DNA from: Alphaproteobacteria bacterium
GTDB lineage: Bacteria; Pseudomonadota; Alphaproteobacteria; Rs-D84
Direction: 5' to 3'
Length of the DNA stretch: 64,000 nt
NCBI GenBank assembly: GCA_050943575.1
Contig: JBMNPL010000002.1
Span: forward strand, 8,073 to 72,072
Shown: positions 31,500-53,782 of the stretch, in pieces
How the letters are laid out: each line of letters starts with the position of its first letter
How positions within the stretch are numbered: the stretch's first letter is position 1
Made by a program: the position numbers and the translations under genes
Notes under the pieces: model-generated
The model's input: only the letters and a program-made list of their open reading frames with translations
What the model was told of the DNA's origin: nothing
Database searches by the model: none

Positions 31500-31526
31500 A
31501 AACCGGCAAATGCCGGTTTTTTTATT
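31499..31526. terminator. bidirectional rho-independent terminator between convergent genes
   Basis: Hairpin aaccggc-aaat-gccggtt (31501-31518) followed by T7. The reverse side is T/A-rich. Confidence 0.55.
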
Positions 31527-34341
31527 TAATTACCATTTCTTGACCATAGGATGCGACTTTTCTGCCACCGATATAACAATTTATATCTGTTTGTTTATTA
31601 AAGTCTTCTATGGCTTTTTGACGAGCTTCTTCTAGTGCTTGGGCTTCTTTTTGATTAATAGCATTTCCAGCAATCATTCCACCAGCAACAGCACTTACAA
31701 CACCAGTAGTAATAGCACCGATATGAGCACCTTTGGTATCAAAATTTAATAAATGATTTTTTGGATTTTTTGTTTTTGATGTATAATTAGTATTAATATC
31801 ATTATATGTACTTTGACAAAGTTTTAATGCTTTACTTCCGACTGGATCACAATTAGGTGTTTTGGTATTATCAATATAATCACATTCCTGACAAGGATTT
31901 TGTGTACTATAATTCTTACCTTTTTGTTCTATACATTGATGACACTTGTTATATAAAGTTATTTTATCTGCATTAATATTAGTTGAATATCCTCTAGTTG
32001 CGTTTTGTATCGCATTTCCTGCCATTACACCACCCAGACCACCGATAACCAAACTACCCAATGTTGCACCACCAATTCGTAATGTTTTTTGAAGTCCGGT
32101 TAATTTTTCTGAACAATTATGAGTTGATGGAGTTTTACCATCCTTACAAAATTCTATTTCTTCTGCTATCTTACGTTCTATTTTTTCTAGTTGTTCCGTT
32201 GTTAAACCTAAACATTGCATAGTTGTGCCTTTGGGATAATACCGCACAGAATTTTCATTTTCTTTCAATACTTCTTGTACTTTAGCATTATTAGAACGCA
32301 TTGTTACTTTAACAGCACAAAAGCCATCAAATGGGTTATTAGTTGCTGTAACCTTATTCAATCCTTCATATTCATTATCTAACGATTCTATATCGGAAAG
32401 AGATGCCCAAATATAATCTTTGCTGGTGGAACCCTTGATATTGCTATTTTCACAAGCATTTTTGATATCATTGGCTTCGCGTTCTAATACGGAATTTGCA
32501 CGTTTACCAATATCTGCTAATAATCCATCAAAGATACTTTGTTCTTGTGTCGCACAAATTTTTATCTTTGTTGATATCTTTACTGTCGGATCAATCACAT
32601 TACCCGCATTATCTACTTTATCAAAATAAGTTTCAGACACACGACAAATATTGTCCGAAGTTTCGTTATTTGACGTAGCATCTAACCATGCATTACGAAC
32701 ATTGTTAGATGTTCCCCAAGAGTCAGCACTTGTACCTTTACTATTTCTTGCATATTGAACATCAAAATAATCTATACAATCTGTGAATTTTTTAACCTTT
32801 AACATACATAAATCACGTGCCATTTCTGTATCAAAACCACCAACAAATGAACCTGTCGAAGGTAAACCTTTTGATTTATTAATAAAACCTTTTTCAATAG
32901 TCAAATTATTAGTAGTATTATTGTTGGCGATTCTGCCTATCGCCGCAGAACTAGTAATAAAGCAACGTGAAAAATCATTTCCGCATTCGTCTTCTACACA
33001 CTTTTCAACTTGTGCTTGACAACTGGTGCGCATACCAGCAACTGCTTGTTCATTAAATGCTTTTTGTAAATCTGTATCCAAACCAACAATAGCGCCAATT
33101 GAATCATTTGTCCAAACCGCATCCCAAACATCACCATCTGAACCTGAATCTTTATTACGAAATACATCTTTACAATATTGATTATTTTCAATTAAATTCT
33201 TACATTGCCCTGTAATATCATGCGCGGCTTTATTTTTTATACTTACCGTATTTCCAACTTTAGCCAACCCATAACAACGGGCACGCGACCCTTCACCACA
33301 TGCATTAACTGCACAATCTGTTATAGCATTTTTACATTGCTCTACAGAATTTTTTGCTGCTAATGCCGCCCATTCTTTTATTTTAGATTGTGCCATTTTC
33401 CAACGCGCACCAACACCATTATACATAATATCTTGGTATACTTCCTGAATATTAAAACTATCTGTTAAATCAACTTCTTTGGCAGGTTTACCATTTGTAA
33501 CCATAAAACACCATTCATTAGTACCAATAGTATCACGACATTGTTCTTTGATATAATTTTTAACATTGCTATCATCCCAACCCATATTATAAATCCAAGT
33601 TTCCAACATATCTGGATTTAAACGAAGCGTAGTTTCGCCAGATGTTGCAATATTAACCATTTCAGATGCATCTATATCTGAAAATCCAGTTAAAGATATA
33701 CATTTATGCGGTGCACCTTTACAAGCATTTTGAATACAAGCATCTGCAGCCTTATTACAGGTTTTAACACTATTTGCAGCCGCCCAATTTTTACCATCTT
33801 TTATTGCTAAATCAATTCTACTCTCTGTAGCAACAGCAATATCACCTAATGCCGGTGTAAATGTTCTTTTGGTTAAAACAGATTCACCATCACACATTGT
33901 GCGATTTGCAGCCGCCATATCATCTGATGTTGTTACAGAATTTCCAAACAAAGCCTTGATCGCTTCAGCAGGACATTGAGCCAAAAATTCTTGGCACATA
34001 ATACGAGATTTATTAAATTGTTTTAAGTTATAACAAAGTTCAAAATGTTCACCGCACACGTTATCTTGGCGCAAACATGATTCATATCTATCAATACAAC
34101 GACCTGATGCCAAACGTTCAGGTAATGGATTTGCACATGTTGCCACCAAACCAGCATCCGCAGAAGGCTTGGTATTAATTACAGGTGCTATTTGCATTGT
34201 GTTTGGACGTGCCGTTGGTAATCGGCTTGTCGCGCTGGGACGTGATAAAGTCGCCATACCAATAGCCCTCGCCGGTACAGTGTAAATTCCTGATACCAAA
34301 GGTATCATTAAACTGATAATTATTGCTTTGTTTATTCTCAT
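31522..34341 (-). CDS. large Cys-rich secreted/surface protein with two C-terminal glycine-zipper segments
   Basis: 939 aa from the Met of the signal peptide MRINKAIIISLMIPLVSGIYTVPARA; the track ORF starts 15 codons upstream. Very many paired Cys. Two GxxxG-rich hydrophobic segments (GGATLGSLVIGGLGGVMAGNAI; GAHIGAITTGVVSAVAGGMIAGNAI). No recognisable enzymatic motif. Confidence 0.5.
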   Translation of the reverse strand: MRINKAIIISLMIPLVSGIYTVPARAIGMATLSRPSATSRLPTARPNTMQIAPVINTKPSADAGLVATCANPLPERLASGRCIDRYESCLRQDNVCGEHFELCYNLKQFNKSRIMCQEFLAQCPAEAIKALFGNSVTTSDDMAAANRTMCDGESVLTKRTFTPALGDIAVATESRIDLAIKDGKNWAAANSVKTCNKAADACIQNACKGAPHKCISLTGFSDIDASEMVNIATSGETTLRLNPDMLETWIYNMGWDDSNVKNYIKEQCRDTIGTNEWCFMVTNGKPAKEVDLTDSFNIQEVYQDIMYNGVGARWKMAQSKIKEWAALAAKNSVEQCKNAITDCAVNACGEGSRARCYGLAKVGNTVSIKNKAAHDITGQCKNLIENNQYCKDVFRNKDSGSDGDVWDAVWTNDSIGAIVGLDTDLQKAFNEQAVAGMRTSCQAQVEKCVEDECGNDFSRCFITSSAAIGRIANNNTTNNLTIEKGFINKSKGLPSTGSFVGGFDTEMARDLCMLKVKKFTDCIDYFDVQYARNSKGTSADSWGTSNNVRNAWLDATSNNETSDNICRVSETYFDKVDNAGNVIDPTVKISTKIKICATQEQSIFDGLLADIGKRANSVLEREANDIKNACENSNIKGSTSKDYIWASLSDIESLDNEYEGLNKVTATNNPFDGFCAVKVTMRSNNAKVQEVLKENENSVRYYPKGTTMQCLGLTTEQLEKIERKIAEEIEFCKDGKTPSTHNCSEKLTGLQKTLRIGGATLGSLVIGGLGGVMAGNAIQNATRGYSTNINADKITLYNKCHQCIEQKGKNYSTQNPCQECDYIDNTKTPNCDPVGSKALKLCQSTYNDINTNYTSKTKNPKNHLLNFDTKGAHIGAITTGVVSAVAGGMIAGNAINQKEAQALEEARQKAIEDFNKQTDINCYIGGRKVASYGQEMVIK

Positions 34342-34416
34342 AACTCCCACCATTCTTGTCAATATTCTATCATAAAAATATAACAATATAAAGAGAAAAA
34401 AGTAAAAAATAGATTT

Positions 34417-36189
34417 TCACTTTTTCTCTAAAAGTTCTTGAACAGCGGCTGCAAAATCTGGGGCTTTTTTTAGAAAACTGCCAGCAACCAGAAAATCTGC
34501 ACCTGCGACCCAACATTTTTTCGCGGTTTCCGGATTTATTCCGCCGTCAACACTTATTTTAAACTTTAATCCATGCTTGCGTCTAGTATTATTTAAAGAA
34601 GCAATTTTTGATATTGATTCTTCTATAAAAACTTGCCCCGATTTTCCTGGAATAACAGACATTATCATAACCTCATCAATATTTCGTAATATCGGAGCAA
34701 TAACTTCTAAATCAGTATTTGGATGTAAAGCAACACCCCCACGTTTACCCGCTGCACGTATTTTATTTAATGCACGTCTTACACCATTTGTACCAGATGA
34801 AACAATAATAGTATCTGCCCCACCCGCAATAGCCTCGGTCGCCCAATTAACTGGATTTTCCGTCATTAAATGAACATGTAAATGTGATTTAGTCCGAGAA
34901 CGAATAAAACGAAGTTCATCAATACCACTGGCAATATTATCAACATAAAAGCCATCCATTATATCAACATGAATCATATCTATGCCCGCAGATTCAAACA
35001 TAGTATAAGTATCTAAATTTCGCATATCCCAAACCAAAGTGCTGGGCATAATTGGAATAAATTTTTTCCGGCGCGAAAAAATCCTCCATCTTAAAGGCGC
35101 GGTTAAAAATCCAAAAAATTTATCCCATTTTTTTCTACGTTCCAAGTATGCTTTAACCCGTGATGATTCAGAATTCCAAATAAATTCTGCAAATGAATTA
35201 ACAATTCCAAATGCGCCCAAATTTTCAACCGGTATATTAAATTCTTTTTCTAAAACATCATCCAGTCCCATAATTCCAGACCCGCCGCCGCTTATATAAA
35301 TTTTAATCGGATTATACTTTTCAATTACTGGAATAAGTATTTCTTGAACTTGACTTAAAATCTCAGAAAAAATACTTTCTGTAATTTCATTCAAATCAAA
35401 TCTGGTTATATCATATTTTGCATCCGCCGGAGTAAACCTGTCCATATCTGTTTGTATTAAACTCATGCTGGAAACTTTTAACCTTTCTGCTTCGGATATC
35501 GGTAAATTAAAAGCCTGTGCAACTGATTTGGTTATATCAGCCCCGCCAATTGGTATTTTATTAATTAATATCGGACCACGTGCTGTCCATAAAGATACAC
35601 TTGTAAATTCTGCACCAAAATCTATGAATATTGAATTTTCTGATGCCAATCGTGCAGTTGACCCCAATAAAAACATAGGATCAAAAAAACCACCAGATCT
35701 AAGATGTGCCGAATGTAATACAGATTTTATATAAGATAAATCTTGAGAATTATATGCTATCACATTAAATACAGAATGTAATGCCCTATCAGTATGTCCA
35801 AGTGGATTTGAAATGTTATGAAAACCACCTAAATCATAACGTAAAGGAATTATATGAAGAACTGAGTTTTCACCTTGGAAAAAATCAAAAATTTGCTCTA
35901 AAATATCGTTTTGTGTAATTTTATGTTCTGCAGACCATATACTTTTTTTTGAAACAATTTTTGATTCAATCTGACCAAAATTCCCCGTAACAAATGCTTT
36001 ATCAAATCTTGTGCCAATTTGTTCTTCAAGACTATCAACCGCTGTTTTTATAGCATATGCTAAATCACTAGATTCTGTATATGCACTTGCAGATGTTTTA
36101 ATCCGTCCAAAACAAACCCTTGTGGCGACAGCATGAACTCCGCTGGAGCCTATATCTAAACATAAAAAAGAACCCTCGGTTAAGTTCAT
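34417..36189 (-). CDS. ftsA: in-frame fusion of cell-division protein FtsA (aa 1-380) and ribulose-phosphate 3-epimerase Rpe (aa 381-590)
   Basis: N-terminus aligns to FtsA (actin fold, CLDIGSSGVHAV...; IYISGGGSGIMGLDD) and ends in a basic amphipathic tail (WDKFFGFLTAPLRWRIFSRRKKF). It continues without a stop into a complete Rpe (MPSTL...HVDIMDGFYVDN...SVDGGIN...VAGSF). Confidence 0.65.
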   Translation of the reverse strand: MNLTEGSFLCLDIGSSGVHAVATRVCFGRIKTSASAYTESSDLAYAIKTAVDSLEEQIGTRFDKAFVTGNFGQIESKIVSKKSIWSAEHKITQNDILEQIFDFFQGENSVLHIIPLRYDLGGFHNISNPLGHTDRALHSVFNVIAYNSQDLSYIKSVLHSAHLRSGGFFDPMFLLGSTARLASENSIFIDFGAEFTSVSLWTARGPILINKIPIGGADITKSVAQAFNLPISEAERLKVSSMSLIQTDMDRFTPADAKYDITRFDLNEITESIFSEILSQVQEILIPVIEKYNPIKIYISGGGSGIMGLDDVLEKEFNIPVENLGAFGIVNSFAEFIWNSESSRVKAYLERRKKWDKFFGFLTAPLRWRIFSRRKKFIPIMPSTLVWDMRNLDTYTMFESAGIDMIHVDIMDGFYVDNIASGIDELRFIRSRTKSHLHVHLMTENPVNWATEAIAGGADTIIVSSGTNGVRRALNKIRAAGKRGGVALHPNTDLEVIAPILRNIDEVMIMSVIPGKSGQVFIEESISKIASLNNTRRKHGLKFKISVDGGINPETAKKCWVAGADFLVAGSFLKKAPDFAAAVQELLEKK

Positions 36190-36944: not shown

Positions 36945-37334
36945 TTAACTTGCTCGTAATAAATAACCACGACGCATCATACATTTACGATATGCGCCAA
37001 TTGAACGAGCGCTGGAATTTGGGGGAACAGACATTAAAGCACGTTGTCCAATATCCGAATTTTCATTTGATTGAAAAGTTACCCACAAACCATCCCAATC
37101 GGGCATCAAACTAGATTGATTTGGGCTGATTAATTTTGCCAATCTGGAACGTGGCATATGTGAAGGCTTTTTTATACCAAGACAACTTTTATGATCACGA
37201 ACAAATTGTTCTGTTGTAACCATATCGTTTTCCCAATTTAAAATTGTCGCATCATCAATAGAACCACGATTAGCAGATGAACACCCTGTTAAAAACACAA
37301 TTGATAAAATAATAAGAATAAAACTTTTCTTCAT
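36945..37334 (-). CDS. hypothetical lipoprotein
   Basis: Start chosen at MKKSFILIILSIVFLTGC (lipobox LTGC). 129 aa. Confidence 0.45.
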   Translation of the reverse strand: MKKSFILIILSIVFLTGCSSANRGSIDDATILNWENDMVTTEQFVRDHKSCLGIKKPSHMPRSRLAKLISPNQSSLMPDWDGLWVTFQSNENSDIGQRALMSVPPNSSARSIGAYRKCMMRRGYLLRAS

Positions 37335-37420
37335 ATTTTTAATTATAACTGAAAAATTAATTTTTTTACAATATAAATTTCCTAAATACATTTAATTAAT
37401 AATAAATCATCCTTTTACAC

Positions 37421-37450
37421 TTGCGAAAACTGGCTTTTTAATTCTATAAT
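37421..37450 (+). promoter_or_regulatory. sigma70-like promoter (TTGCGA, 18 nt spacer, TATAAT) for the 37474 operon
   Basis: Near-consensus -35 and a perfect -10 hexamer. Strong RBS AGGAAGGAG follows at 37458-37466. Confidence 0.4.
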
Positions 37451-37473
37451 GTAAGTACAGGAAGGAGCAAAAA

Positions 37474-37782
37474 ATGACCGCTGAAGAAAGATATATTCGT
37501 ATAGCCGGTTTTTACGAGGCTTTAAAAACATTGTCCGCTGCAATACGTACTCAAAAAGGTGGTATAGCAGCCGAAAATTATACAGGACGATTTTTTGAGG
37601 CAGATGTTCTGGAAATGCTAAATGCATATGGTGAAAAATTAAAGCCTAGTGATGCTAAACTAAAAGCCCTGATAAAAAAATATCAATCCGAATTTCAAGG
37701 TGTTAAAGATTTAGTCACACCCAGTAATAAACCTGTGCATGAAATGACTCTTGAAGAATTTCAACGTGTTATGAATATATAA
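37474..37782 (+). CDS. hypothetical small cytoplasmic helical protein, first gene of the secretin-like operon
   Basis: 102 aa with a strong RBS. No TM or signal peptide. Confidence 0.45.
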   Translation: MTAEERYIRIAGFYEALKTLSAAIRTQKGGIAAENYTGRFFEADVLEMLNAYGEKLKPSDAKLKALIKKYQSEFQGVKDLVTPSNKPVHEMTLEEFQRVMNI

Positions 37783-37792
37783 AGGACATAAA

Positions 37793-39109
37793 ATGAAAAA
37801 AATATATATACTCTTTGTGTTTTGTTCATTGTTTTTTATTAGCGCATGCCAATTTAGACAAGACACAGAGCAATTTGATGAAATACAAGTTATTGAAAAT
37901 ATAGTAATAGATGAATATTCTGTCCCTATTTTCCCACGCAAAGCCGCATTAACAACTGATACTGCACGTAGATTTGCTATAGATTTACCAAAACGTTGTA
38001 AAGTTGATTGGGATAATCATAATTTACTATCTGTTTTACCATCAAATCCTGTAGAAATTGTGCGATTAAATAAAGGTGATGATTTACCTAATTTTGTAGT
38101 AGAAGATTTTTCTTTTAAGAAAAAAAGCGTCCCTGAGGTTTTAGAAAAATTACTAATTGGTACTAAAATCAAAATCGTTGCTAGCGAAAAATTACCCGAT
38201 TTAATTAGCGGGGAAATAAAATCTGGAACACTAGAAGATGCTGTTGAGCTTATTTGTAAACTAGGTAAAACCTATTATACGTATGACGATGATACAAAAG
38301 AAATTCGTATTTCTAGTCGTGGAAAATGGCTGATGAAAATGCCAAAGGATGAATATGTAATTATGGCTTTAATTGACGCAATGCATGGTTATAACTTGCG
38401 TAATTTAATGACCAACTGGAAAGATAAAACTTTGGTGTTTGAAGGTAATTATCAAACAGAAAAAAAAGTTCGAGATATAATTGCTGATATTGGAAATAAA
38501 AAATTCTTGATTGCTTGGGATATGGATATTTATCGTGTATATCCACGTACTGACAATCCAATTGTTTGGATGAATATGCTACCTGCGTTTGGTGAAAAAA
38601 ATATCAGAATGTCAATCCCTGGGGTAGTCGGAAGATTGTTGGTTGTATCACCTGAAATAAATACAAAAACATTGCAATCGTTTTTAGCACAACAATCAAA
38701 TGTAGTGTTAATTTCCCAAGGAACATTTGTAATACCAAATGGCTGGCAAAGTAGATTTGATATTGGACAATGTTCTCGTGAAGAAAGATTAGAAACAGAT
38801 TTAATAATTGGTGCAACTGGTAAATATGGTAAATATGCAGATATGACTAAACTAGATGCAAAAATTGCATTACGTACAACAAATGGAGAATTGGCTAGTT
38901 TTAACGCACCAACAACTCTTGGGGATAACTATGTTATTATTGGAATACCCACACATAGTTTTGTAACTGGACCTGAAACATTAATAAACCCATTTGCAGA
39001 ATTGGTGATATTTATGAGCCCACGTATTATTTCAATCGTAGAACCAGATAATGCAGATGACGCCACAGAACTTTCCGGTGATAAACTGCGTGAGTATTTA
39101 GATGAATAA
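37793..39109 (+). CDS. lipoprotein with secretin-like N-domain and secretin-like C-terminus (putative liposecretin)
   Basis: 438 aa. Lipobox FISAC. A segment (VPEVLEKLLIGTKIKIVASEKLPDLISGEIKSGTLEDAVELICKLGKTYYTYDDDTKEIRI) matches the Secretin_N/STN pattern. The C-terminus (NYVIIGIPTHSFVTGPETLINPFAELVIFMSPRII) resembles the secretin ...ELLIFITPRII ending. RBS AAGGA. Confidence 0.35.
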   Translation: MKKIYILFVFCSLFFISACQFRQDTEQFDEIQVIENIVIDEYSVPIFPRKAALTTDTARRFAIDLPKRCKVDWDNHNLLSVLPSNPVEIVRLNKGDDLPNFVVEDFSFKKKSVPEVLEKLLIGTKIKIVASEKLPDLISGEIKSGTLEDAVELICKLGKTYYTYDDDTKEIRISSRGKWLMKMPKDEYVIMALIDAMHGYNLRNLMTNWKDKTLVFEGNYQTEKKVRDIIADIGNKKFLIAWDMDIYRVYPRTDNPIVWMNMLPAFGEKNIRMSIPGVVGRLLVVSPEINTKTLQSFLAQQSNVVLISQGTFVIPNGWQSRFDIGQCSREERLETDLIIGATGKYGKYADMTKLDAKIALRTTNGELASFNAPTTLGDNYVIIGIPTHSFVTGPETLINPFAELVIFMSPRIISIVEPDNADDATELSGDKLREYLDE

Positions 39110-39120
39110 AAGGACAAATA

Positions 39121-39339
39121 ATGAAAGTGCTAAAATGGATAAAAATATGTATAAAAACTATAATTTCTCTTTTTATAGCAATCATTATTAGTAATCTTAT
39201 AAGTGATGTGGTTTATAATTTGATACGAATATCATCACTTGAACGATTAACTTTTATTATCGTATTTTTATTTACCGGGTACAAAACTCTCCCAGAAACT
39301 GTTAAAAATGCTGTAAAAAATGGTATAAAAAATTGGTAG
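39121..39339 (+). CDS. small two-TM membrane protein
   Basis: 72 aa with RBS AAGGA. Lies between the secretin-like gene and lolC. Confidence 0.35.
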   Translation: MKVLKWIKICIKTIISLFIAIIISNLISDVVYNLIRISSLERLTFIIVFLFTGYKTLPETVKNAVKNGIKNW

Positions 39340-39345
39340 GTTAAA

Positions 39346-40599
39346 ATGTTTAGTCGTTTGGAAAAGAAAATTGCATTTAGATATTTACGCGCACGCGGAC
39401 GTGGATTCGGTAGTGTTATTTCATGGGTATCATTACTGGGTATTGCACTGGGGGTTGCAACACTTATTGTTGTTATGTCTGTTATGGGTGGTTTTCATGA
39501 TACCCTGCTTTCACGTATTGTTGGTATGAATGGACATGTTGTTGTTTATCACCAAGATGGTGCAATTAAAGATTTTGATTACTTAATTGAAAAAATAAAA
39601 TCAAATAAAATTGTTATAGAAAATACTAACAATATTATCCCTGTTCTAGAAGGACAAGCAATGGTATCTGCAAATGGTAAAAATTCTGGAACAATGGTTC
39701 GTGGTATTAGAATGAACGATTTAGAACGCAAATTTCAAAAAGGTACAAAAATTTATGGAACACCCCTTTCAAAAATTCAAAGTGGACAATTAATAATGGG
39801 TGCCCCATTGGCAAGAATGTTGCGCCTTACTATAAATAATAATGCAACACTTATAAGTGCAAATGGTGGAACAGCAACAGCATTTGGAACTATGCCACGA
39901 ATACAATCATATCCTGTCGCAACAACATTTTTCGTAGGTATGTATGAATATGATTCTGGTTATATCTTTATGCCCTTGGAAACCGCGCAAAAGTTTTTAA
40001 ATTCCCCTGATGGTGTTTCGCATATAGATTTATTCTTAAAAAATTCAGAAAAAACAGATGTTGTTCGCAATGCTTTATCAGATAGTCTGCCAAATGGATT
40101 TGTAGTTCGTGATTGGCGTGATTTAAATCGTAGTTTTGTCGGTGCATTACAAGTTGAATCAAATGTAATGTTTTTAATTTTATTATTAATAGTAATCGTT
40201 GCAGCATTTAATATTGTATCTAGCTTGGTTATGCTGGTTAAAGATAAATCACGAGATATTGCAGTATTGCGAACATTTGGTGTTTCACGAAATAGTATGA
40301 TGAAAATATTTATTTTATGCGGTACAAGTATTGGAATTATTGGTGCTGTAATTGGAACAATTGTGGGTGTCTTGGTTGCAAAATATATTGAACCAATACG
40401 ACAGTTTTTTCAATGGATAACTGGTCGTGATTTGTTCCCATCAGAACTATACTTTCTTTCTGAATTACCATCTAGAATAGAATTTTGGAATGTTTTTGGA
40501 ATTGCTTTTATCGCAATCGCATTAGCATTTTTGGCAACTCTTTACCCAGCATGGAAAGCAGCTAAAACAGATCCAGTAGAAGTTTTAAGGAATGAATAA
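39346..40599 (+). CDS. lolC: lipoprotein-releasing system permease LolC/LolE (FtsX/MacB-type)
   Basis: 417 aa. N-terminal region similar to LolC (FRYLRARGRGFGSVISWVSLLGIALGV). A periplasmic domain is followed by the FtsX 3-TM bundle. Confidence 0.75.
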   Translation: MFSRLEKKIAFRYLRARGRGFGSVISWVSLLGIALGVATLIVVMSVMGGFHDTLLSRIVGMNGHVVVYHQDGAIKDFDYLIEKIKSNKIVIENTNNIIPVLEGQAMVSANGKNSGTMVRGIRMNDLERKFQKGTKIYGTPLSKIQSGQLIMGAPLARMLRLTINNNATLISANGGTATAFGTMPRIQSYPVATTFFVGMYEYDSGYIFMPLETAQKFLNSPDGVSHIDLFLKNSEKTDVVRNALSDSLPNGFVVRDWRDLNRSFVGALQVESNVMFLILLLIVIVAAFNIVSSLVMLVKDKSRDIAVLRTFGVSRNSMMKIFILCGTSIGIIGAVIGTIVGVLVAKYIEPIRQFFQWITGRDLFPSELYFLSELPSRIEFWNVFGIAFIAIALAFLATLYPAWKAAKTDPVEVLRNE

Positions 40600-41314
40600 A
40601 ATGGCAGCACCAATATTAAAATCTTTATCTTCTGTAAAAAAACGAGCAACTGTTATGTCAGTTGTTGGTATTAAAAAATCTTTTATGGAAGGTGGACAAC
40701 CATTAAATATTTTACGTGGCGGAGGATTTGAATTAATGCGTGGTGAAATTGTCGCTCTGGTCGGTCCATCAGGATGTGGTAAATCTACCCTGATACAATG
40801 TGTTGGATTGCTGGATCAACCAAGTGGGGGGCAAATTACTATTACCGGTATTCCAGTTCATAAAATGAACGAAGATCAACGCACATTAATCCGCAGAACT
40901 AAACTCGGTTTCGTTTATCAACGTCATAATTTATTGGAAGATTTTACAGCTCTTGAAAATGTGATGATGCCTATGCTGGCAAATAATATGAATGAAGATG
41001 ATGCGCGTATTCGTGCAAAAAAATTACTAAAAGCTACAAATATTTTACACCGCGCAAATCATAGACCTGCAGAAATGTCCGGTGGCGAACAACAACGTAC
41101 TGCTGTGGCACGTGCGCTTGCTAATAAACCTGAGATTGTTCTGGCAGACGAACCAACAGGATCACTTGATCCAACACACGCATCAAATGTTTTTGACTTG
41201 CTATTATCTTTAGCAAAAAAAACACGTATGTCTATGTTATTCGTAACACATGATATGAATCTAGCAAAACGTGCCGATAGAATAATTACTATAAAAAATG
41301 GAATTGTTGGATGA
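40592..41314 (+). CDS. lolD: lipoprotein-releasing system ATP-binding protein LolD
   Basis: 240 aa with Walker A GPSGCGKST, ABC signature SGGEQQR and Walker B LADEPTGSLD. Confidence 0.8.
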   Translation: MNKMAAPILKSLSSVKKRATVMSVVGIKKSFMEGGQPLNILRGGGFELMRGEIVALVGPSGCGKSTLIQCVGLLDQPSGGQITITGIPVHKMNEDQRTLIRRTKLGFVYQRHNLLEDFTALENVMMPMLANNMNEDDARIRAKKLLKATNILHRANHRPAEMSGGEQQRTAVARALANKPEIVLADEPTGSLDPTHASNVFDLLLSLAKKTRMSMLFVTHDMNLAKRADRIITIKNGIVG

Positions 41315-42431
41315 AAATAAATTTAAAATACCTATCTGAAACTTGGCGGAAATTTTCGCAATTCTCTAAACATCAAATTTCAACATCCATATTAAAAATT
41401 CAAGAGATTGAACAAGCGACTATTATGCCGCATCAACCAAATATTAAAATAGGAATCCCTCAAAAAGTTCGTGGTGTTCGTATTCGTAAATATGGGCAAC
41501 AATCAGCAAATTATATTGATAAAGAAGTAATTCTTTTAGGGGCTGCAGATCCATTTTTTGGACACTTTTTAGCAGATGGGCTTTCTCGCGCTTGGCCTAT
41601 TTTAGATAAAAAATTTATTAATTATACTTTCGTAGTAGTTCAAGGACGCGGGGGGGTGAATTAAAAAATTTTGCTAAACAACTTTATAAACTTGTAGGTA
41701 TAAAGAAATTACTTTTTATAACAAAACCAACAAGGTTTAAAAAAATACTCATTCCTGATTTATCTTTTAATTATACGCGCGGTATAGCACATAAAAAATA
41801 CACCGATACTTTTGCAAAAATCGCATCAACAGTTCCAACAGATAAATCTTTACCGAATAAAATTTATCTATCGCGAACAAAACTTGGGTATAATGAAACA
41901 TTTGGTGAAAAAACAATTGAAAATATTTTTGCAAAAAATGGATTTACTATTATTTATCCAGAACAATTATCCCTAGAAAAACAAATACAATTAATGAAAG
42001 CTGCACAAACAATTGCTGGAGTTAGCGGAACAGCACTACATTTATCTCTATTCGCACAAAATGGAATAAAATTAATTTGTATTCATAAAAGAAATTATAT
42101 TTTAAAAATGCAGATTCTAATTGATAAATTAAAAAATATAAATGGAACATATATTGATGCATTTTTAACTATTGGAAATTTGAAAAAATGTGATGGAAAA
42201 TCTTCAGCCGCTTTAATCGGAATAAATAAAAATTTGCAGAATTTTTTTAATGATAATAATTTTATATATTCACTTGATAAAAATAATAATACAAAAGAAT
42301 ATAAACAATTTATACAATCATTTAATAAACAACGAAGAATAATCCCAAAATGGTTAGGTGGAATTATACTTTCATTTGTTCCATCCCATAATTTACGACA
42401 TTCTTTAAGAAAAAAATGGAGATTAAAATAA
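41311..42431 (+). CDS. GT61/DUF563-like glycosyltransferase interrupted by a frameshift in a G7 tract (two ORFs 41311-41664 and ~41655-42431)
   Basis: The C-part has the DUF563 pattern (NETFGEKTIENIFAKNGFTIIYPEQLSLEKQIQLMKAAQTIAGVSGTALHLSLF). The N-ORF ends 8 nt after a G7 run; adding one G joins both parts into a ~373-aa protein. Confidence 0.5.
41650..41656 (+). repeat. homopolymeric G7 tract inside the glycosyltransferase coding sequence
   Basis: cgcGGGGGGGtgaa. The longest G/C homopolymer noticed in this otherwise AT-rich window. Confidence 0.9.
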
Positions 42432-47826: not shown

Positions 47827-48809
47827 CTTAAAATCTCTTGTAATTCTTTCATATCATCCGGTAATTTAGATTTAAACTTTATAAATTCGTCAGTTATCGG
47901 ATGTTTTAATTCCAAAACTTCAGCATGTAACATTTGTCCATGATGTGTTTTTATAAATTCTAATAATTCCGGATCTTTTACACTACCCAACCGAGAACTA
48001 CCACGACCATAAACAGGATCACATACAACAGGAAAACCATGAGCAGATAAATGAACGCGTATTTGATGTGTTCGTCCCGTTAGTAAAGTACAACGAAGTT
48101 TAGCAATACCAACATCAGACCAAACATTAATCGCTTCAACTTTGGTTTCAGCCGGCTTTCCACCAACTTTTAAAATAGTCATTTTTTGGCGATTTCTGGA
48201 ACTGCGACCAATATTACCAACTATATCTGCCTCTAACCAATTCGGAATTCCCCAAACAAAAGCAATATATTTTCTTGTTAAATTATGGCTGGCAAATGTT
48301 TTTGTTAATGCTTTATACGCCATATCTGATTTAGCAAAAATTACTATCCCACTTGTATCTTTATCCAAACGATGAACAACCCCCGGACGCATTAAACCAC
48401 CATGTATAGATAAATTGGTGTGTGATAAAACACGATGAACTAATGTATCCGTTTCACGTCCTGCACCCGGATACATCGCAATACCACGCGGTTTATTTAC
48501 AACAATAATATCCTTATCTTCAAATAAAATATCTAGATCAAATTTAATTCTATTATTTATAAATAATGATTGTTGTTGTTCTTTTTTTGGAATAATAACA
48601 CTTATTTGATCATCAAATTTTATTTTATCAGAAAATTTTATTTCGCCTGTGTTTGGCATTTTTTTTACAACAAATTTTTGTATCTCACTACGTGAAAATT
48701 CCGGCATTTTATCTACTAAAAACTTATCCAGACGCAGACCAATATCTGACTCTTTAGCAACAAAAGTTCTTGTATCATTCATTCCAATTTTTTCCCTTGA
48801 TACAATCAT
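47823..48809 (-). CDS. rluD: RluA-family 23S rRNA pseudouridine synthase (RluD-like)
   Basis: 328 aa. N-terminal S4 domain. Catalytic motif HRLDKDTSGIVIFAK. Confidence 0.8.
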   Translation of the reverse strand: MIVSREKIGMNDTRTFVAKESDIGLRLDKFLVDKMPEFSRSEIQKFVVKKMPNTGEIKFSDKIKFDDQISVIIPKKEQQQSLFINNRIKFDLDILFEDKDIIVVNKPRGIAMYPGAGRETDTLVHRVLSHTNLSIHGGLMRPGVVHRLDKDTSGIVIFAKSDMAYKALTKTFASHNLTRKYIAFVWGIPNWLEADIVGNIGRSSRNRQKMTILKVGGKPAETKVEAINVWSDVGIAKLRCTLLTGRTHQIRVHLSAHGFPVVCDPVYGRGSSRLGSVKDPELLEFIKTHHGQMLHAEVLELKHPITDEFIKFKSKLPDDMKELQEILS

Positions 48810-49230
48810 TTAATATGATTTTTATTTCACGTCCGTTCCCAGTTATTTGACAATTTATTATACCTGTTGTTTTTTTCTGAGAATCATTTCTGGACGCTTC
48901 GCGCCATGCAAACCGAATCTGATCAGGACGTTTTACACAAGTAATATTCATAACAGCTTTTTTATCTTCGGCTGAAAACTTACTTGGAGAAATCCATACT
49001 CGTGCGGTTTCTGCCTGCCCTATACATGGAAAACTATCCAAAAAATAAAGTTCCATACCATTATTCCCAATAGATTTATCGCGAATAAAAGAAATGTCAT
49101 ATTGACTATAACGAAGACCAGTAACACTTTCCCAGTCTGTACTGGTAGAAAATAAATTTACTGAATTTGCATCATATACAGAAACACAAATCAAAAAAAA
49201 TAAAGAAAATAAAAATAATAATCTTTTCAT
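48775..49230 (-). CDS. hypothetical secreted protein
   Basis: 151 aa with a signal peptide (FFLICVSVYDANS). Last gene of the pilin-like operon, immediately before rluD. Confidence 0.4.
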   Translation of the reverse strand: MKRLLFLFSLFFLICVSVYDANSVNLFSTSTDWESVTGLRYSQYDISFIRDKSIGNNGMELYFLDSFPCIGQAETARVWISPSKFSAEDKKAVMNITCVKRPDQIRFAWREASRNDSQKKTTGIINCQITGNGREIKIILNDCIKGKNWNE

Positions 49231-49244
49231 ATTTAACTTCCTTA

Positions 49245-49724
49245 TTAATCACTTAATTCTACTGAAACTTTTACAAAACCCGTCGGCACATTATGAACTT
49301 GAACTGAAAAGTTTGCTTTTTCACCAGAACCTAATAATGGTACTGGAGGTGTAAATTTTTGCGATGATACTTCTATGTTTTTATCGTTTTTAATAATAAC
49401 TATTAAATCTGGCACACCATGTAATTTTTCCGATTTATTTTCAATAATACCAGAAACAACTAAAACATCATCAACTGGATGTGCTGATTTCATATGAATA
49501 AATAATGGACCTTGTTTATCTAATGGTGCCCATAAAACCAGCGCAATTAAAGAAAAAGCAGCCAATAATAAAACCAAAACAGATAATAAAAAAACTAAAA
49601 AATTTCTATTTTTTCGTATAATTGGTTTACGCCAAACATGACCACATACAGCACATTTGAATATGTTATTACTTATACTATTAATAGAATAACTTACTTT
49701 GCAAAAAGGGCATGTTATTTTCAT
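49245..49724 (-). CDS. zitP: ZitP-like protein: N-terminal MJ0042-type zinc ribbon, TM helix, C-terminal DUF3426 domain
   Basis: 159 aa. CPFC...(17)...CAVCGH zinc ribbon, then a basic stretch and TM (FLVFLLSVLVLLLAAFSLIALVLW), then a beta-rich periplasmic domain. Confidence 0.5.
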   Translation of the reverse strand: MKITCPFCKVSYSINSISNNIFKCAVCGHVWRKPIIRKNRNFLVFLLSVLVLLLAAFSLIALVLWAPLDKQGPLFIHMKSAHPVDDVLVVSGIIENKSEKLHGVPDLIVIIKNDKNIEVSSQKFTPPVPLLGSGEKANFSVQVHNVPTGFVKVSVELSD

Positions 49725-49771
49725 TTTTTATTCATTTATCGTTGTTAATAATATCTATATTATATTTTGTA

Positions 49772-51076
49772 TTACTCTAAATTCAAGTTATTATATTTTT
49801 GAGTCACACGATTTTTAATTTCATTTATTGCCTTGGTATAATCTGAAATTGTAGCATTATTGTTTGCCGCAACACTTCTTATTATTGTTTCCGTTTCAGT
49901 TTTTATAGTTTTTGATTCTTTGTTAATCGCTGATTTTAATAATGGATTCAACACGCCACATAAAATGTCTGATAGGTGTGCCACATCTGTTTGTAAATCC
50001 CAATAATATGAAGAATCTGCAGGATCTTCTATACGTTCAGTTATATTTATTTTTGGTGCAACAGAACCAGTATATCCAACAGTTACCGTTCTGGCAGTAA
50101 CTCTACCTCTTGTTACATCCATAATATTACTAATTTTTAAAGTTGCAGATTTATCGCTACCATTAACTGATAACCAATTTAAATTTAAATCTCTAACCCA
50201 TAATTCATTAGCTTCAAGTCTGGAAAATCTACCTGTGTCACCTAATAATAATTCTCCAGAAATTTCCGCGTTTCTTGAATCTGATGTAAGTGTACCCATC
50301 ACCAATGTTTCCCCTGTAATTTTTAATTGTGTATCTAATTCTGTCCGTGGTGAAATTTGAACTTTTTGAGCAACAATCGAATCAGATTTAAGAATTTCTG
50401 TAAAATCTGAATTACGTGCATCTATTGATAAAATATTGTTTATATTATTTCCACCCATTAGTAAATTTGAAGACATGGAAGAATCAAAGGAATTTTTAGA
50501 AGGTGTGCGCCATAAAAAATCACCACCAGATAAAAGTGTTTTCGTCCCACCAACAATAGAATTTTTACCCAATTGAGCATCAAAAATATTTGTCCTAGAA
50601 CGCCATGTACCAAATGCACCATGTGCATGATTTTTATCTATAAATCCTGATGATACACCACCAAGCTCTGCTATTTCACGAGTGCGTAATGGGGATATAT
50701 CTGCAGAATTATATATAACCATACCAGATAATACAGAATGCCCCGCCATATCCCGAGATTTTATTATGCGCGCCTGAAATTTATCATGATCTTTTGGAAT
50801 ATTCCCATATTTAGCTAAATCACGAATTTTAACCTTGGTAATCACACGCCCCGTTGGTTCAAATAATTTGATTTTATGTGCAATCATATATCTTTCTAAT
50901 GCATCTTTAGTTATATCAATATCTCTTGCTATACGAACATTTTCAGCACGTTTAGCACGATCATTTAACTCGCGCATAACAAACGGTAAAATAGAAGCAG
51001 CAATTGCTAAAGATAAAAGAATTTCTAGCAACATCCCGCCAAATTCATTCTTAAAAAATTTATTTTTATTCATCAT
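49772..51076 (-). CDS. large type IV prepilin-like protein (third of three)
   Basis: 434 aa. Basic leader MMNKNKFFKNEFG, then GMLLEILLSLAIAASILPF (G|xxxxE with E at +5) and a hydrophobic alpha1-like segment. The remainder is beta-rich with Ser/Thr/Asn repeats. Confidence 0.45.
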   Translation of the reverse strand: MMNKNKFFKNEFGGMLLEILLSLAIAASILPFVMRELNDRAKRAENVRIARDIDITKDALERYMIAHKIKLFEPTGRVITKVKIRDLAKYGNIPKDHDKFQARIIKSRDMAGHSVLSGMVIYNSADISPLRTREIAELGGVSSGFIDKNHAHGAFGTWRSRTNIFDAQLGKNSIVGGTKTLLSGGDFLWRTPSKNSFDSSMSSNLLMGGNNINNILSIDARNSDFTEILKSDSIVAQKVQISPRTELDTQLKITGETLVMGTLTSDSRNAEISGELLLGDTGRFSRLEANELWVRDLNLNWLSVNGSDKSATLKISNIMDVTRGRVTARTVTVGYTGSVAPKINITERIEDPADSSYYWDLQTDVAHLSDILCGVLNPLLKSAINKESKTIKTETETIIRSVAANNNATISDYTKAINEIKNRVTQKYNNLNLE

Positions 51077-51093
51077 GTTTTATTACTTGTAAA

Positions 51094-52341
51094 TTACATA
51101 TCTTGCCATCCACTGGTAATTATTGGCAAAAAATCGTTATTATTTGGTACAATAAGCGTTTCACCAATTTCATTATTATTTACCTTTTTTAAAAACAAAT
51201 TAGAAAATCTGGGACCATTAATCGATGGGAAATACCATCTCCCTAACCTAATTGGAGCACCGCCTGTACTAGAATATAATAATTCACCCGAGATTGTTAT
51301 TCCGAAATCTTTTTGAAAAATTAAATTATCAGTGGATAAAAAAGGTGTCGCAATAGATTGAGCGCGAATACCCGCAAAGCTTGTAATTATCCTTGAACTT
51401 TCGGACCGAACAATCATATCATTTTGAACATGTATTGGGCCATTTATATTTACCATATCTACAATTATATCTCCGCGAGAAGACCATGATGATCCGGATG
51501 ATGTACCAATACCTTTTAATTTATCCGCTGTAATATTTCTGAAACCAGAAATATCATCGCTTACATTTATCGATTCAAACTCTGCATTAGATGCATCTAT
51601 TGACATACCTTCGGGAAAAAAGATCTCTTTTGTTTTAATAATTCCCGATTCAACAAACCATGTTTTTACATTTGTTGAATTTAAAGTTTTGGCATTTATT
51701 TTTCCAATATCAAAAATATTATTCTTTACCATATCTATATCTCGATACATAGTATTCAATTCTATATTATCTAAATATATTCTATGTAAATATTTATACG
51801 AATCATCTTTTCCTAAAATGTCAGATATTCTAAAAATTAAATCGCCTTCGCTAAATAATTCTGATGAAATACCCCATCCCGCAGAACTAATAGCTTCACC
51901 ACCAGATTCTACAATTGCAGCATCTGTACCTAAATTCCTTACAATATTTGCTACTCTAATTTTTTTTATTTTAATCGGTCTAAATGCAATATATGCATTT
52001 ATAGAAGTTCCACTAGAATCTTCGCGTTTCTCAATAAATCCGGCATAAGGGTCTAATAAACGATTATCACCTTTATTAAGAATTTTTAGTTGATTTTGAT
52101 TAAATTCTACTTGTGCATTTGATGGCCAATCAGATTGATTTTTACGAACATAAGCCATAATAGGATCGCCCCAAGCTATAATATGCTTTGATTCGCTAAT
52201 ATCCGCAATCTGATTACTCATATTTATCGCACCATTATATGCAAATGGTATTATTGCACCAACAATTGCTATAGCCAGCAGAGTTTCTATCAACCCTGCA
52301 CCTTTTTGTTCTTTATAAAAATCTCTGTTTTTGTTTTTCAA
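51094..52341 (-). CDS. large type IV prepilin-like protein (second of three)
   Basis: 415 aa. Leader MKNKNRDFYKEQKG, then mature AGLIETLLAIAIVGAIIPFAY, a textbook class III signal with E5. Confidence 0.5.
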   Translation of the reverse strand: MKNKNRDFYKEQKGAGLIETLLAIAIVGAIIPFAYNGAINMSNQIADISESKHIIAWGDPIMAYVRKNQSDWPSNAQVEFNQNQLKILNKGDNRLLDPYAGFIEKREDSSGTSINAYIAFRPIKIKKIRVANIVRNLGTDAAIVESGGEAISSAGWGISSELFSEGDLIFRISDILGKDDSYKYLHRIYLDNIELNTMYRDIDMVKNNIFDIGKINAKTLNSTNVKTWFVESGIIKTKEIFFPEGMSIDASNAEFESINVSDDISGFRNITADKLKGIGTSSGSSWSSRGDIIVDMVNINGPIHVQNDMIVRSESSRIITSFAGIRAQSIATPFLSTDNLIFQKDFGITISGELLYSSTGGAPIRLGRWYFPSINGPRFSNLFLKKVNNNEIGETLIVPNNNDFLPIITSGWQDM

Positions 52342-52345
52342 TTAA

Positions 52346-53782
52346 TCACTCACAATTAGTTTGTCCATTTATTTTACATTGCTTTATGTTTATACGACGC
52401 TCTAATCTTTGCCAAAAAACGAACTGACAAACAATGTTTTGAGATATGGAATTTGAATTATATGCCGGGGCTGAAGGTAAAGAAGAAATTATTGTTTTAC
52501 AACTAACTACTTCACCATCATCTAGATCTGGATTTTTAAGTATTTGAAATTCATCATTATTTATTGTATCAGATAAAACATCCGGCAAAACAGAAACACC
52601 AGCCGGTCTAATATCCATAACTATTGCGCCATCAATACCAGATAATAAAGCACTTGAAACCTGATCTCGTAAAGTTATAAATGCTGTGCTTATTTTTTGT
52701 GCCTCTATCCCACTTTTTGTCGCATATGTTAATTCATATTCATCAATAAATACATCTTGACCACGTGATGCGTTTATAAATCCATTTATTTCTATATGTT
52801 CTGTATCTATAGAAATATTATTTAAAATAACATCACTATGAACATTCCAATCATACATCCCATAAAATCCAGTTCTTCCGACAGACATTGATAAAGAATT
52901 TATTAAAGCTGTATTAACATAAACATAACCTGGTAATCCATATTTAAACAAATATCGCCCTGATAACGAATTAGTTTTTAAATTACCACGATAAATATTT
53001 AATGGATTATCGCCATTGTTTGATTGAAATACTGCACGATCAGAAGTTAAATAATTTATTTTATTTTTAAATCTTCTGTTATCACTAGAACCAACAATAG
53101 AAAGAGTATTAAAATTTCCATTATTTAAGTCTGCGTTTTTAGATACTAATGATGTGATATTTTTTATAGAAAAATTTCCCATATTTAAATCTGTATAAAA
53201 TTTTGACCTATCAGGATCATTCGTTTTTCGACGAACCAATTCTGAAAAATCATCATTAGTTGATACCAAAACATAAATAGCAGAAATATCCGGTTTTATC
53301 CCATAATCTTTTAAATTCTTATTCCATCCGCCTACCCCTTGTAAAACACCATTCTTATCCGATGTTGCAGCATTAGGCCCAATACGCGATATTAACTCTC
53401 TACGTTTTACTTCTGAAAGATCTCCATTATGCAAAATTATTAAACTTAATATTTCAGATTCATTTTTCACTGTTAAAAGTGATATTTTTTGTCCTATAAT
53501 TGTTTGAGGAATAAACCCTAATGGTAATCCAAATGGTTCTAATAAATCTGAAAAGTCTTCACCAGCAATATTTTGTTGACCATAAGCAAGATTATCTTTA
53601 CTTACTCTAATAAATTCTCGAGCAGCACGTACCGCACTATTAGTTTGCTGTGCAATCGCATTTAACGAATAGTCATTTTTTCTTGATGATAGTTTTTGTG
53701 CCAAAAAAGGCATAAAAATCATAACTAAAGCAACTGCTAACAAAGCTTGCAGTAAAAAATTTCCACGGGATTCGCTTTGCAA
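52346..53782 (-). CDS. large type IV prepilin-like protein (first of three; Q at +5)
   Basis: 478 aa. Short leader MQSESRG, then NFLLQALLAVALVMIFMPFL. As in minor pseudopilins of the GspK/PilX type, Q replaces the usual E5. Confidence 0.4.
   Translation of the reverse strand: MQSESRGNFLLQALLAVALVMIFMPFLAQKLSSRKNDYSLNAIAQQTNSAVRAAREFIRVSKDNLAYGQQNIAGEDFSDLLEPFGLPLGFIPQTIIGQKISLLTVKNESEILSLIILHNGDLSEVKRRELISRIGPNAATSDKNGVLQGVGGWNKNLKDYGIKPDISAIYVLVSTNDDFSELVRRKTNDPDRSKFYTDLNMGNFSIKNITSLVSKNADLNNGNFNTLSIVGSSDNRRFKNKINYLTSDRAVFQSNNGDNPLNIYRGNLKTNSLSGRYLFKYGLPGYVYVNTALINSLSMSVGRTGFYGMYDWNVHSDVILNNISIDTEHIEINGFINASRGQDVFIDEYELTYATKSGIEAQKISTAFITLRDQVSSALLSGIDGAIVMDIRPAGVSVLPDVLSDTINNDEFQILKNPDLDDGEVVSCKTIISSLPSAPAYNSNSISQNIVCQFVFWQRLERRINIKQCKINGQTNCE

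Follow-up and report, generated by a model that had tools for sequence, protein, structure and literature searches.

What is the lipoprotein encoded next to the lipoprotein-sorting genes lolC and lolD in a gut alphaproteobacterium of the order Rs-D84, and why is its gene found there? The locus lies in a 64,000-nt stretch of contig JBMNPL010000002.1 (assembly GCA_050943575.1, positions 8,073 to 72,072; hereafter the window, meaning the whole stretch that was analysed). An earlier note, made from the sequence, proposed that the 438-aa lipoprotein is a lipidated secretin which would need Lol for outer-membrane targeting, and which might serve three pilin-like proteins encoded 10 kb away or an unrecognised export system. 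Our analysis places the protein in an unannotated, strongly diverged branch of the secretin superfamily, whose nearest characterised kin are lipidated type IVb-pilus secretins (BfpB; MshL- and PilN-like). We give a probability of about 60% to the reading that it is a diverged lipidated secretin whose ring is the outer-membrane conduit of a family-specific apparatus, and not of a classical type II secretion system (T2SS), type III secretion system (T3SS), type IV pilus (T4P) or Tad system.

To place the protein, a family profile was made from 49 homologs and run against 1.84 billion representative proteins. It retrieved only 168 clusters, and its only distant matches were secretins of 460-845 aa, aligned at profile positions ~95-331 with E values of 1e-12 to 1e-5. 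Ten of these distant matches were scanned: all ten contained Pfam Secretin, six also STN and two TcpQ. These secretins, which are uncharacterised lipoproteins, are the only detectable sequence relatives outside the family, and we refer to them as bridging secretins. They share with the family the N0 motifs SDPLP, GxLxxV and FYxY, the lipobox and a terminal ELVxxxxPR strand. They differ from it in that they pass the Pfam Secretin model, are 460-845 aa long and have full gates, whereas a cysteine pair, Cys69-Cys327, is specific to the family.

By hhalign, 31 Pfam-positive bridging secretins were set against a broad alignment of the family, which contains 37 sequences with identities as low as 21%. 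The two aligned with 100% probability and an E value of 4e-40 over 333 columns (family 79-416, secretin 59-471). The aligned region extends from N0 through the C-terminal motif AELVIFMSPRII, which pairs with sELVIvLrPrvv of the bridging secretins and also aligns with the terminal strand of BfpB. The secretin-like C-terminus pointed out in the earlier note is thus present and matches the secretin terminal strand. The nearest matches of the bridging secretins themselves were BfpB (E 1e-33) and the NCBIfam models for MshL (TIGR02519) and PilN (TIGR02520).

The predicted fold gave the same answer. An AlphaFold monomer model from a diverse alignment of 62 sequences had a predicted local distance difference test score (pLDDT) of 83 and a predicted TM-score (pTM) of 0.72; it replaced a first run on close homologs only (pLDDT 65). 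In a Foldseek search of the PDB, the top 35 matches were all secretins, led by BfpB (1.5e-9) and Vibrio cholerae PilQ (1.7e-9) and followed by InvG, GspD and pIV. The only significant viral fold matches were pIV-type secretins. The profile comparisons and the exclusively secretin fold matches show, at the level of sequence and model, that the 438-aa protein is a true although very divergent secretin homolog, and the earlier identification of it as a secretin relative is upheld. Its parts, with coordinates in the window, are as follows.

37793-37849, + strand: signal peptide and lipobox FISA/C, aa 1-19; Cys19 is the predicted lipidation site.
37850-38053, + strand: N-terminal linker, aa 20-87, highly conserved, mostly unstructured in the model, with invariant Cys69 (PxRC).
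38054-38317, + strand: N0 (STN-type) domain, aa ~88-175, beta-alpha-beta-beta-alpha-beta-beta, pLDDT ~90.
38321-38545, + strand: N3-type (Secretin_N-like) domain, aa 177-251, beta-alpha-beta-beta-alpha-beta topology in the model.
38546-39040, + strand: shortened secretin domain, aa 252-416, with a short lip hairpin, a retained Gate-2-like hairpin and the terminal strand AELVIFMSPRII.
39041-39109, + strand: C-terminal tail, aa 417-438 and stop codon, with a conserved helix, LSGDxLRxYLxE, that is confined to the Rs-D84 clade.

The call of a lipoprotein held, since the lipobox is present and Cys19 is invariant in the 49 close homologs; a lipobox-like site is found in 162 of 201 full-length family members. 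The linker, in which R68-C69 is invariant, has pLDDT values below 50 for aa 19-52 and is possibly analogous to the LG linker of BfpB. The N0 domain superposes on the PilQ N0 domain 4ar0 at a root-mean-square deviation of 2.3 Å (Foldseek probability 1.00). The N3-type domain aligns to N3 of the bridging secretins, and its fold matches the periplasmic domains of GspD, XcpQ and EscC. The motif that had been quoted as a Secretin_N-like region is present, and hhalign pairs it with the corresponding segment of the bridging secretins, but it belongs to an N0/STN-type domain; the Secretin_N-type domain, N3, comes after it. For the C-terminal helix, an S-domain-like role is speculation.

The secretin domain has been trimmed. 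According to hhalign it is ~60 residues shorter than in the nearest secretin relatives, and three deletions are seen relative to the bridging secretins: ~20 residues after FDIGQC, ~22 before GDNYVIIGIP and ~16 before the last strand. The first hinge glycine and the last strand are 71 aa apart (63-82, n = 90), versus ~129 in bridging secretins with correctly matched motifs. In f1 pIV, Gate 1 is a loop of ~30 residues that extends from hinge Gly267 to Gly297 and seals the pore (PMC8563730). Because the equivalent interval, G325-D336, has only ~10 residues and the second hinge glycine is not conserved, Gate 1 is essentially deleted in the family. C69 in the linker and C327, two residues past the hinge glycine, are invariant across the family (both motifs occur in 194 of the 201 full-length members) and are absent as a pair from the bridging secretins. 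It is attractive to infer a disulfide bond between the linker and the gate stump.

Among characterised proteins, the best structural match is BfpB of the bundle-forming type IVb pilus of enteropathogenic Escherichia coli. BfpB is built from a lipidated LG linker, N0, N3 and a secretin domain, and has no N1/N2 and no S-domain (PMC12531336; PDB 9u5s). The 438-aa protein has the same plan, with an N-terminal lipidated cysteine (predicted here), a linker, N0, N3 and a secretin domain but no N1/N2 or classical S-domain, and in both cases a small gene lies directly upstream of the secretin gene. However, the two proteins are only ~10% identical in sequence, and no NCBIfam match to PilN-family TIGR02520 was obtained for the 438-aa protein. 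In BfpB, the secretin domain is complete, its central gate is closed and an additional N3 barrel is present, whereas the family lacks ~60 residues, among them nearly all of Gate 1. BfpG carries a signal peptide and is an N0-like protein of the periplasm, whereas the product of the small upstream gene here (small102) is helical and carries no export signal. BfpB is encoded in a 14-gene pilus operon, whereas no pilus genes are present at this locus.

The secretin pIV of phage f1 (PDB 7ofh; PMC8563730), a significant fold match, resembles the family in its compact N0-N3-secretin plan of ~400 residues, its short lip and its lack of an S-domain. It keeps Gate 1 (~30 aa) and Gate 2, whereas in the family the corresponding interval is ~10 aa and the second hinge glycine is replaced; pIV is unlipidated and phage-encoded, whereas the family is chromosomal and absent from viral contigs. 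We therefore considered whether the protein is the pIV-type secretin of a resident filamentous prophage or another mobile element. Size and domain plan agree with f1 pIV, the only significant viral fold matches are of this type, and a neighbouring protein in relatives, with two helix-turn-helix (HTH) domains, weakly resembles the phage repressor RstR. Against this, the gene keeps the same chromosomal place, amid cell-division and Lol genes, in all of 82 related Rs-D84 loci (~80 species, compared in views of ±10 kb), relatives occur in 314 genomes including Candidatus Enterousia spp. (one genome per species scanned), no family member was found among 2.9 million viral contigs, and no Zot/pI-type or other inovirus gene is present. 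A prophage origin is effectively refuted by these findings, and we rejected it.

The five open reading frames (ORFs) listed in the earlier note are all present at its coordinates. Together with the divergent gene beside them and the promoter-like site, they are arranged as follows.

36945-37391, - strand: lipo148, a divergent small lipoprotein; the real start is probably Met20, position 37334.
37421-37450, + strand: promoter-like site TTGCGA-18 nt-TATAAT, 10/12 matches in a consensus scan.
37474-37782, + strand: small102, 102 aa, an ORF placed as in the earlier note.
37793-39109, + strand: secretin-like lipoprotein, 438 aa, N-terminus MKKIYILFVFCSLFFISAC, ORF confirmed.
39121-39339, + strand: 72-aa ORF with two transmembrane (TM) segments, a lineage-specific insert outside the conserved unit.
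39346-40599, + strand: lolC/E-type lipoprotein-release ABC permease, 417 aa, single copy (TIGR02212; Pfam MacB_PCD, FtsX).
40592-41314, + strand: lolD-type ABC ATPase, 240 aa, with TIGR02211 as best match; its first 8 bp are shared with the end of lolC.

The permease scored 418.3 bits with TIGR02212, above the cutoff of 362.45, and is accordingly assigned to the LolC/E type. TIGR02211 was the top match of the ATPase at 255.1 bits, which is below the cutoff of 307.75; its position and its overlap with lolC support the lolD assignment. A promoter with strong ribosome-binding sites had also been claimed. Shine-Dalgarno-like sites do precede the first two genes (GGAAGGAG 6 nt ahead of the small102 ATG and AAGGA 6 nt ahead of the ATG of the secretin-like gene), whereas the promoter itself is only plausible, because promoter-like matches in this AT-rich region are no commoner than in shuffled sequence (31 observed vs 32.8 expected).

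Conservation of this arrangement was determined in the 82 related loci. Gene by gene, the counts and the median identities to the window were as follows.

small102, directly upstream of the secretin-like gene: 82/82 loci, 48%.
Secretin-like gene: 82/82 loci, 65%.
lolC, directly downstream: 82/82 loci, 74%.
lolD: 80/82 loci, 71%.
lipo148, the 148-aa divergent lipoprotein: 81/82 loci, 70% (range 61-81%).
ftsQ: 73/82 loci, 40%.
ftsA-rpe: 71/82 loci, 47%.

The order small102, secretin-like gene, lolC, lolD is not due to chance. In Rs-D84, the module of small102 and the secretin-like gene is shown to be fused with lolC and lolD into one predicted transcription unit. The secretin-like protein is conserved nearly as well as LolC and LolD, so that the constraint on it is unusually strong for a secretin. 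The interval from its stop codon to the lolC start is ≤63 bp in 73 of the 82 loci. In the other nine (L003, L004, L007, L012, L016, L024, L027, L037, L039), unrelated inserts are found at the junction. The 72-aa ORF, which had been taken as part of the unit, has no homolog in any of the 82 loci, and given the short interval to lolC in most of them it is to be left out of the unit. This junction (window positions 39110-39345) is a hot spot for insertions, the 72-aa ORF being another of them; cargo elsewhere includes a DNA methylase with a restriction-like gene and nitroreductase-like, HD-domain-like and dehydrogenase-like ORFs. The divergent lipo148 has a lipobox and two conserved cysteines and is without a relative in Pfam, NCBIfam or PDB sequences. 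It could act alongside the secretin-like protein, for example as a pilotin-like accessory.

The link to lolC and lolD extends beyond this clade. It is also found in L169 and L170, whose secretin-like proteins are 41% and 35% identical to that of the window, and in L170 the stop and start codons overlap. All three lol-linked lineages encode lipoproteins. However, lolCD is absent within 10 kb in ~50 other family loci, so the linkage is real but not universal. The downstream genes resemble those for LolCDE in that they are of LolC/E and LolD type and the secretin-like protein is a predicted Lol client; they differ in that one lolC/E gene replaces lolC plus lolE. A fusion of lolCD with a secretin homolog in one operon is, to our knowledge, not part of any described Lol locus, and we found no paper describing one.

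These data bear on whether the protein acts in lipoprotein trafficking, either as an outer-membrane acceptor that replaces a missing LolB or as a gate-less ring through which LolCD-released lipoproteins reach the surface. As far as we know, Alphaproteobacteria have no recognisable LolB, a point in favour of the idea. The operon link in three lineages that differ by 59-65% in the secretin-like protein, with overlapping genes in one, speaks for such a role, as do conservation on a par with LolC and LolD and the predicted lipidation in all three lineages. On the other hand, some of the ~50 unlinked loci encode members that are not lipoproteins, the partner found everywhere is a small102-domain protein and not lolCD, the secretin fold is unlike the half-barrel of LolA and LolB, and the lolC junction accepts unrelated genes in 9/82 loci. 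We regard a trafficking role as very doubtful, and the secretin-like protein is probably not itself a Lol component. Since any outer-membrane lipoprotein needs Lol, the functional argument made in the earlier note is not specific to this protein, even though the linkage that it rested on is conserved in Rs-D84 and two further lineages. The Lol link is best read as co-expression, both for this reason and because many family members are neither lol-linked nor lipidated and the junction takes insertions.

The upstream gene proved to be the more constant partner. small102 is predicted to be helical, without a signal peptide or TM segment, and has no relative in Pfam, NCBIfam or PDB. Its profile hidden Markov model matched the gene directly 5′ of the secretin-like gene in L084, L083, L169, L171 and L170 (E 5e-10 to 5e-5), and the reverse profile, built from these 'up' proteins, matched 72 Enterousia small102 orthologs (best E 1e-13). 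The shared 'up' domain has the pattern KGGIAxENYxGRFFxADxLE. A directly upstream small102-domain gene, whose product has no signal peptide or TM segment, is the only partner common to all locus classes. A role of small102 as a BfpG/TcpQ-like partner was rejected: the protein has no signal peptide, is helical and is not N0-like.

Distant loci were found with a profile of distant subfamilies, which brought in further members from gut Alphaproteobacteria. They fall into two classes. In class I (L169, L170), the order is a double-HTH protein, one protein of 217-258 aa and one of 318-406 aa, the secretin-like protein, lolC and lolD; in L169, lspA lies near the secretin-like locus. Class II comprises L083-L085, L088, L171 and metagenome loci and has no lolCD within 10 kb. 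Its gene order begins with three to five tandem, mutually divergent polytopic membrane proteins, the double-HTH protein and a protein of 700-1,300 aa, and ends with an acidic helical protein of 243-415 aa, the secretin-like gene and a proline-rich single-pass membrane protein. Of the loci found by a scan anchored on the double-HTH gene, 42 extend at least 8 kb downstream of it, and every one of these has the secretin-like gene. The double-HTH protein (~330 aa, two XRE-type HTH domains, 46-96% identity among L083-L168; e.g. L088:3771-4766) is encoded ahead of the secretin-like module in all class II and non-Enterousia class I loci, and its gene has at least 273 confirmed matches in human-gut metagenomes.

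The tandem membrane proteins belong to a VirB6/TrbL-like type. PF04610 matched six of the nine paralogs that were scanned, one of them above the gathering score, and a TrbL match was obtained in L088. One VirB6/TrbL-like paralog, at L146:6115-9834 (+ strand), is a fusion protein that also contains an M23 peptidase at the N-terminus and a VgrG3-like peptidoglycan-hydrolase domain, an architecture that suggests a cell-wall-cutting function built into the array. Tandem VirB6 duplication and scattered components are hallmarks of the Rickettsiales rvh type IV secretion 'archipelago' (PMC2653234). The relatives resemble rvh in that three to five tandem, divergent VirB6/TrbL-like proteins adjoin the secretin-like gene in reduced-genome Alphaproteobacteria. 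They differ from it in that no VirB4, VirB8-11 or VirD4 was seen in the class II loci examined, or in any other locus examined, and in that no known type IV secretion system uses a secretin. The resemblance concerns the neighbours of relatives and not the locus in the window: profiles built from the class II neighbours, namely the VirB6-like, large, proline-rich and double-HTH proteins, had no match in the window or in the Enterousia loci within ±10 kb.

The window also contains the pilin-like trio, three ORFs of 434, 415 and 478 aa at 49772-53782 (- strand) with prepilin-type N-termini KG/AGLIE, GG/MLLE and RG/NFLLQ, each followed by a hydrophobic helix. They are the only ORFs in the window with such an N-terminus in a relaxed search; a strict pattern search for pilins was negative. 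The trio belongs to a five-gene cluster (48775-53782, - strand) in front of rluD, together with a 159-aa zinc-ribbon/TM protein and a 151-aa secreted protein. The cluster has the same order in L086 and L087 and is without family annotation, save for one public record in which a homolog is named PulG pseudopilin.

The secretin-like protein could accordingly be the outer-membrane secretin of a scattered T4P or T2SS-like system whose fibre is formed by this trio. The prepilin-type N-termini with their hydrophobic helices, the PulG record, the retention of the trio cluster in the same clade, and the fact that, of all characterised proteins, those closest to the family are pilus secretins (BfpB, MshL-/PilN-like, PilQ) agree with this explanation. 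However, neither the window nor the surroundings of the trio in L086 and L087 yielded an assembly ATPase, a platform protein or a prepilin peptidase, and a motif scan detected no GspE/GspF signature in 1.66 Mb of related loci, which mostly cover the same region. The window has no small major pilin, and in a genome survey of Rs-D84, type IV pili are reported only for another lineage (PMC12306168). The trio lies more than 10 kb from the secretin-like gene, comes within the ±10 kb view in only three of the 82 loci, all from close relatives, and shows ~35% identity where the secretin-like protein shows ~65%. Moreover, the relatives pair with VirB6-like arrays and not with pilus genes. Because the trio is distant, fast-diverging and without ATPase, platform protein or peptidase, its link to the secretin is possible but unsupported, and we consider a scattered pilus or T2SS-like system unlikely. 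Of the two export routes that had been suggested for the lipoprotein, an unrecognised export system fits best.

On the reading that we prefer, a lipidated secretin serving a family-specific apparatus, the protein would cross the inner membrane by Sec, be lipidated at Cys19 and be handed over by LolCD to the outer membrane. There it would oligomerise into a secretin-type ring, the lumen of which may be wide or differently plugged; the linker may be disulfide-tethered to the gate stump, possibly as a tethered plug. The ring would be the outer-membrane conduit of a family-specific envelope apparatus. Relatives would encode this apparatus alongside, in the form of the double-HTH regulator, the large protein, the proline-rich membrane protein and the 3-5 VirB6/TrbL-like inner-membrane proteins, whereas in Enterousia the apparatus genes may lie elsewhere or may have been lost. 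Co-transcription with lolCD would most likely ensure that the sorting machinery is made in the amount and at the time required for an abundant, essential lipoprotein.

Several observations weigh against this proposal. The 438-aa protein had no Secretin, Secretin_N or STN match at E ≤ 1 in Pfam or NCBIfam, and neither the single sequence nor the family profiles directly matched a solved secretin among PDB sequences. The earlier note had named the absence of a secretin-family match as grounds for dropping its proposal; formally, that absence is what was found, and we judge the check too blunt. In a Pfam scan of the family, PF00263 matched none of 37 members and Secretin_N one, and STN was the commonest sub-threshold match (8/37 members, best E 3e-4). 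A negative hmmscan alone is therefore insufficient to dismiss a secretin call. Global TM-scores to secretin chains were low (0.15-0.28), so the agreement in fold is by domain, and the monomer model is unusually compact. Without Gate 1 and ~40 further residues, the canonical double-walled barrel may not form, and oligomerisation of the protein into a ring and pore is a predicted step. About 25 family members, from class II loci, have ordinary signal peptides and are not lipoproteins, so lipidation is not essential to family function. We found no T2SS, T3SS, T4P, Tad or filamentous-phage machinery in the window or in the ±10 kb views of 80 related loci, in agreement with the earlier remark that no cognate T2SS, T4P or Tad genes are adjacent. 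The association with VirB6-like proteins is confined to relatives at 25-35% identity, and a small102-domain partner without an export signal fits poorly with a protein of the outer membrane.

Some of these points would also be expected if the protein were derived from a secretin but no longer a channel, that is, a periplasmic or outer-membrane scaffold or tether in which only the folds of N0, N3 and the beta-sheet remain. Every member lacks Gate 1, some of the lip and ~40 further barrel-region residues; the monomer model is compact and confident (pTM 0.72) and superposes poorly as a whole on secretin protomers; and no secretion machinery is adjacent in the Rs-D84 lineage. However, the strands of the outer and inner sheets and the terminal strand are retained, strong purifying selection acts on the full length of the protein, secretin domain included, and a transport apparatus is suggested by the polytopic VirB6-like proteins to which it is linked in relatives. 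A non-channel scaffold is distinctly unlikely in our view, and a ring that serves as an outer-membrane conduit is still the reading that we favour.

The remainder of the window, which has a GC content of ~32%, is occupied by housekeeping genes: secD, mutL, greA, lptF/G, an xerD-like gene, an ftsA-rpe fusion, ftsQ, addB, engB, rsmI, an LpoA-like gene, rluD, serS, typA, recA and a ybeY-lnt fusion. Two of these are gene fusions, which join the YbeY endoribonuclease to Lnt (apolipoprotein N-acyltransferase) at 5519-7492 (- strand) and FtsA to ribulose-phosphate 3-epimerase at 34417-36189 (- strand). The FtsA-Rpe fusion was seen again in related genomes (L001, L002), and its homolog is the one counted above in 71 of the 82 loci. 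A 954-aa ORF at 31522-34386 (- strand) has no Pfam match and is kept in the closest relatives (seven loci, 48-67% identity). It may encode an AsmA-like envelope lipid-transport protein, as the gene at the matching edge of L001 has a faint AsmA match. Downstream of lolD, ORFs of 117 aa (41311-41664, + strand) and 145 aa (41994-42431, + strand) have homologs only in the nearest relatives, L003 and L004, and may be halves of one disrupted gene.

The family, missed by curated models, comprises more than 1,200 sequence clusters and is common in human and livestock gut metagenomes. Every named one of its 1,211 homolog clusters is a 'hypothetical protein' from uncultured Alphaproteobacteria or 'Rickettsiales' metagenome-assembled genomes, and we found no description of it in the literature. 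Secretins belong to the most thoroughly studied outer-membrane channels of bacteria. Known secretin classes combine a gated double barrel with a recognisable partner machine, whereas this family lacks the main gate and has a cysteine pair of its own. It is about as conserved as essential envelope proteins, and it sits in the lolCD operon or beside VirB6-like arrays.

Its carriers include closed chromosomes of 716 kb and 959 kb. Rs-D84 (Candidatus Enterousia) comprises gut bacteria with genomes <1 Mb that lack amino-acid, nucleotide and lipid biosynthesis, and an obligate dependence on other cells, as symbionts or parasites, has been proposed for its members (PMC12306168). In a bolder form of our proposal, which we hold to be unlikely, the family would be the outer-membrane ring of an undescribed envelope-spanning apparatus, in gut Alphaproteobacteria with reduced genomes and a dependence on partners, that moves lipoproteins, lipids or other macromolecules. 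The protein's own disulfide-tethered linker would control the gate-less lumen; in some lineages the ring would work with VirB6-like inner-membrane proteins derived from a type IV secretion system, and in Rs-D84 it would be joined directly with the LolCD extractor. If this is true, cargo would pass to or from the cell surface or a host cell, which would matter for organisms reported to be without lipid, nucleotide and amino-acid synthesis. The Rs-D84 hosts of the family are uncultured and are thought to live off other cells; the secretin-like protein is therefore a concrete, testable candidate for part of their cell-exchange interface.

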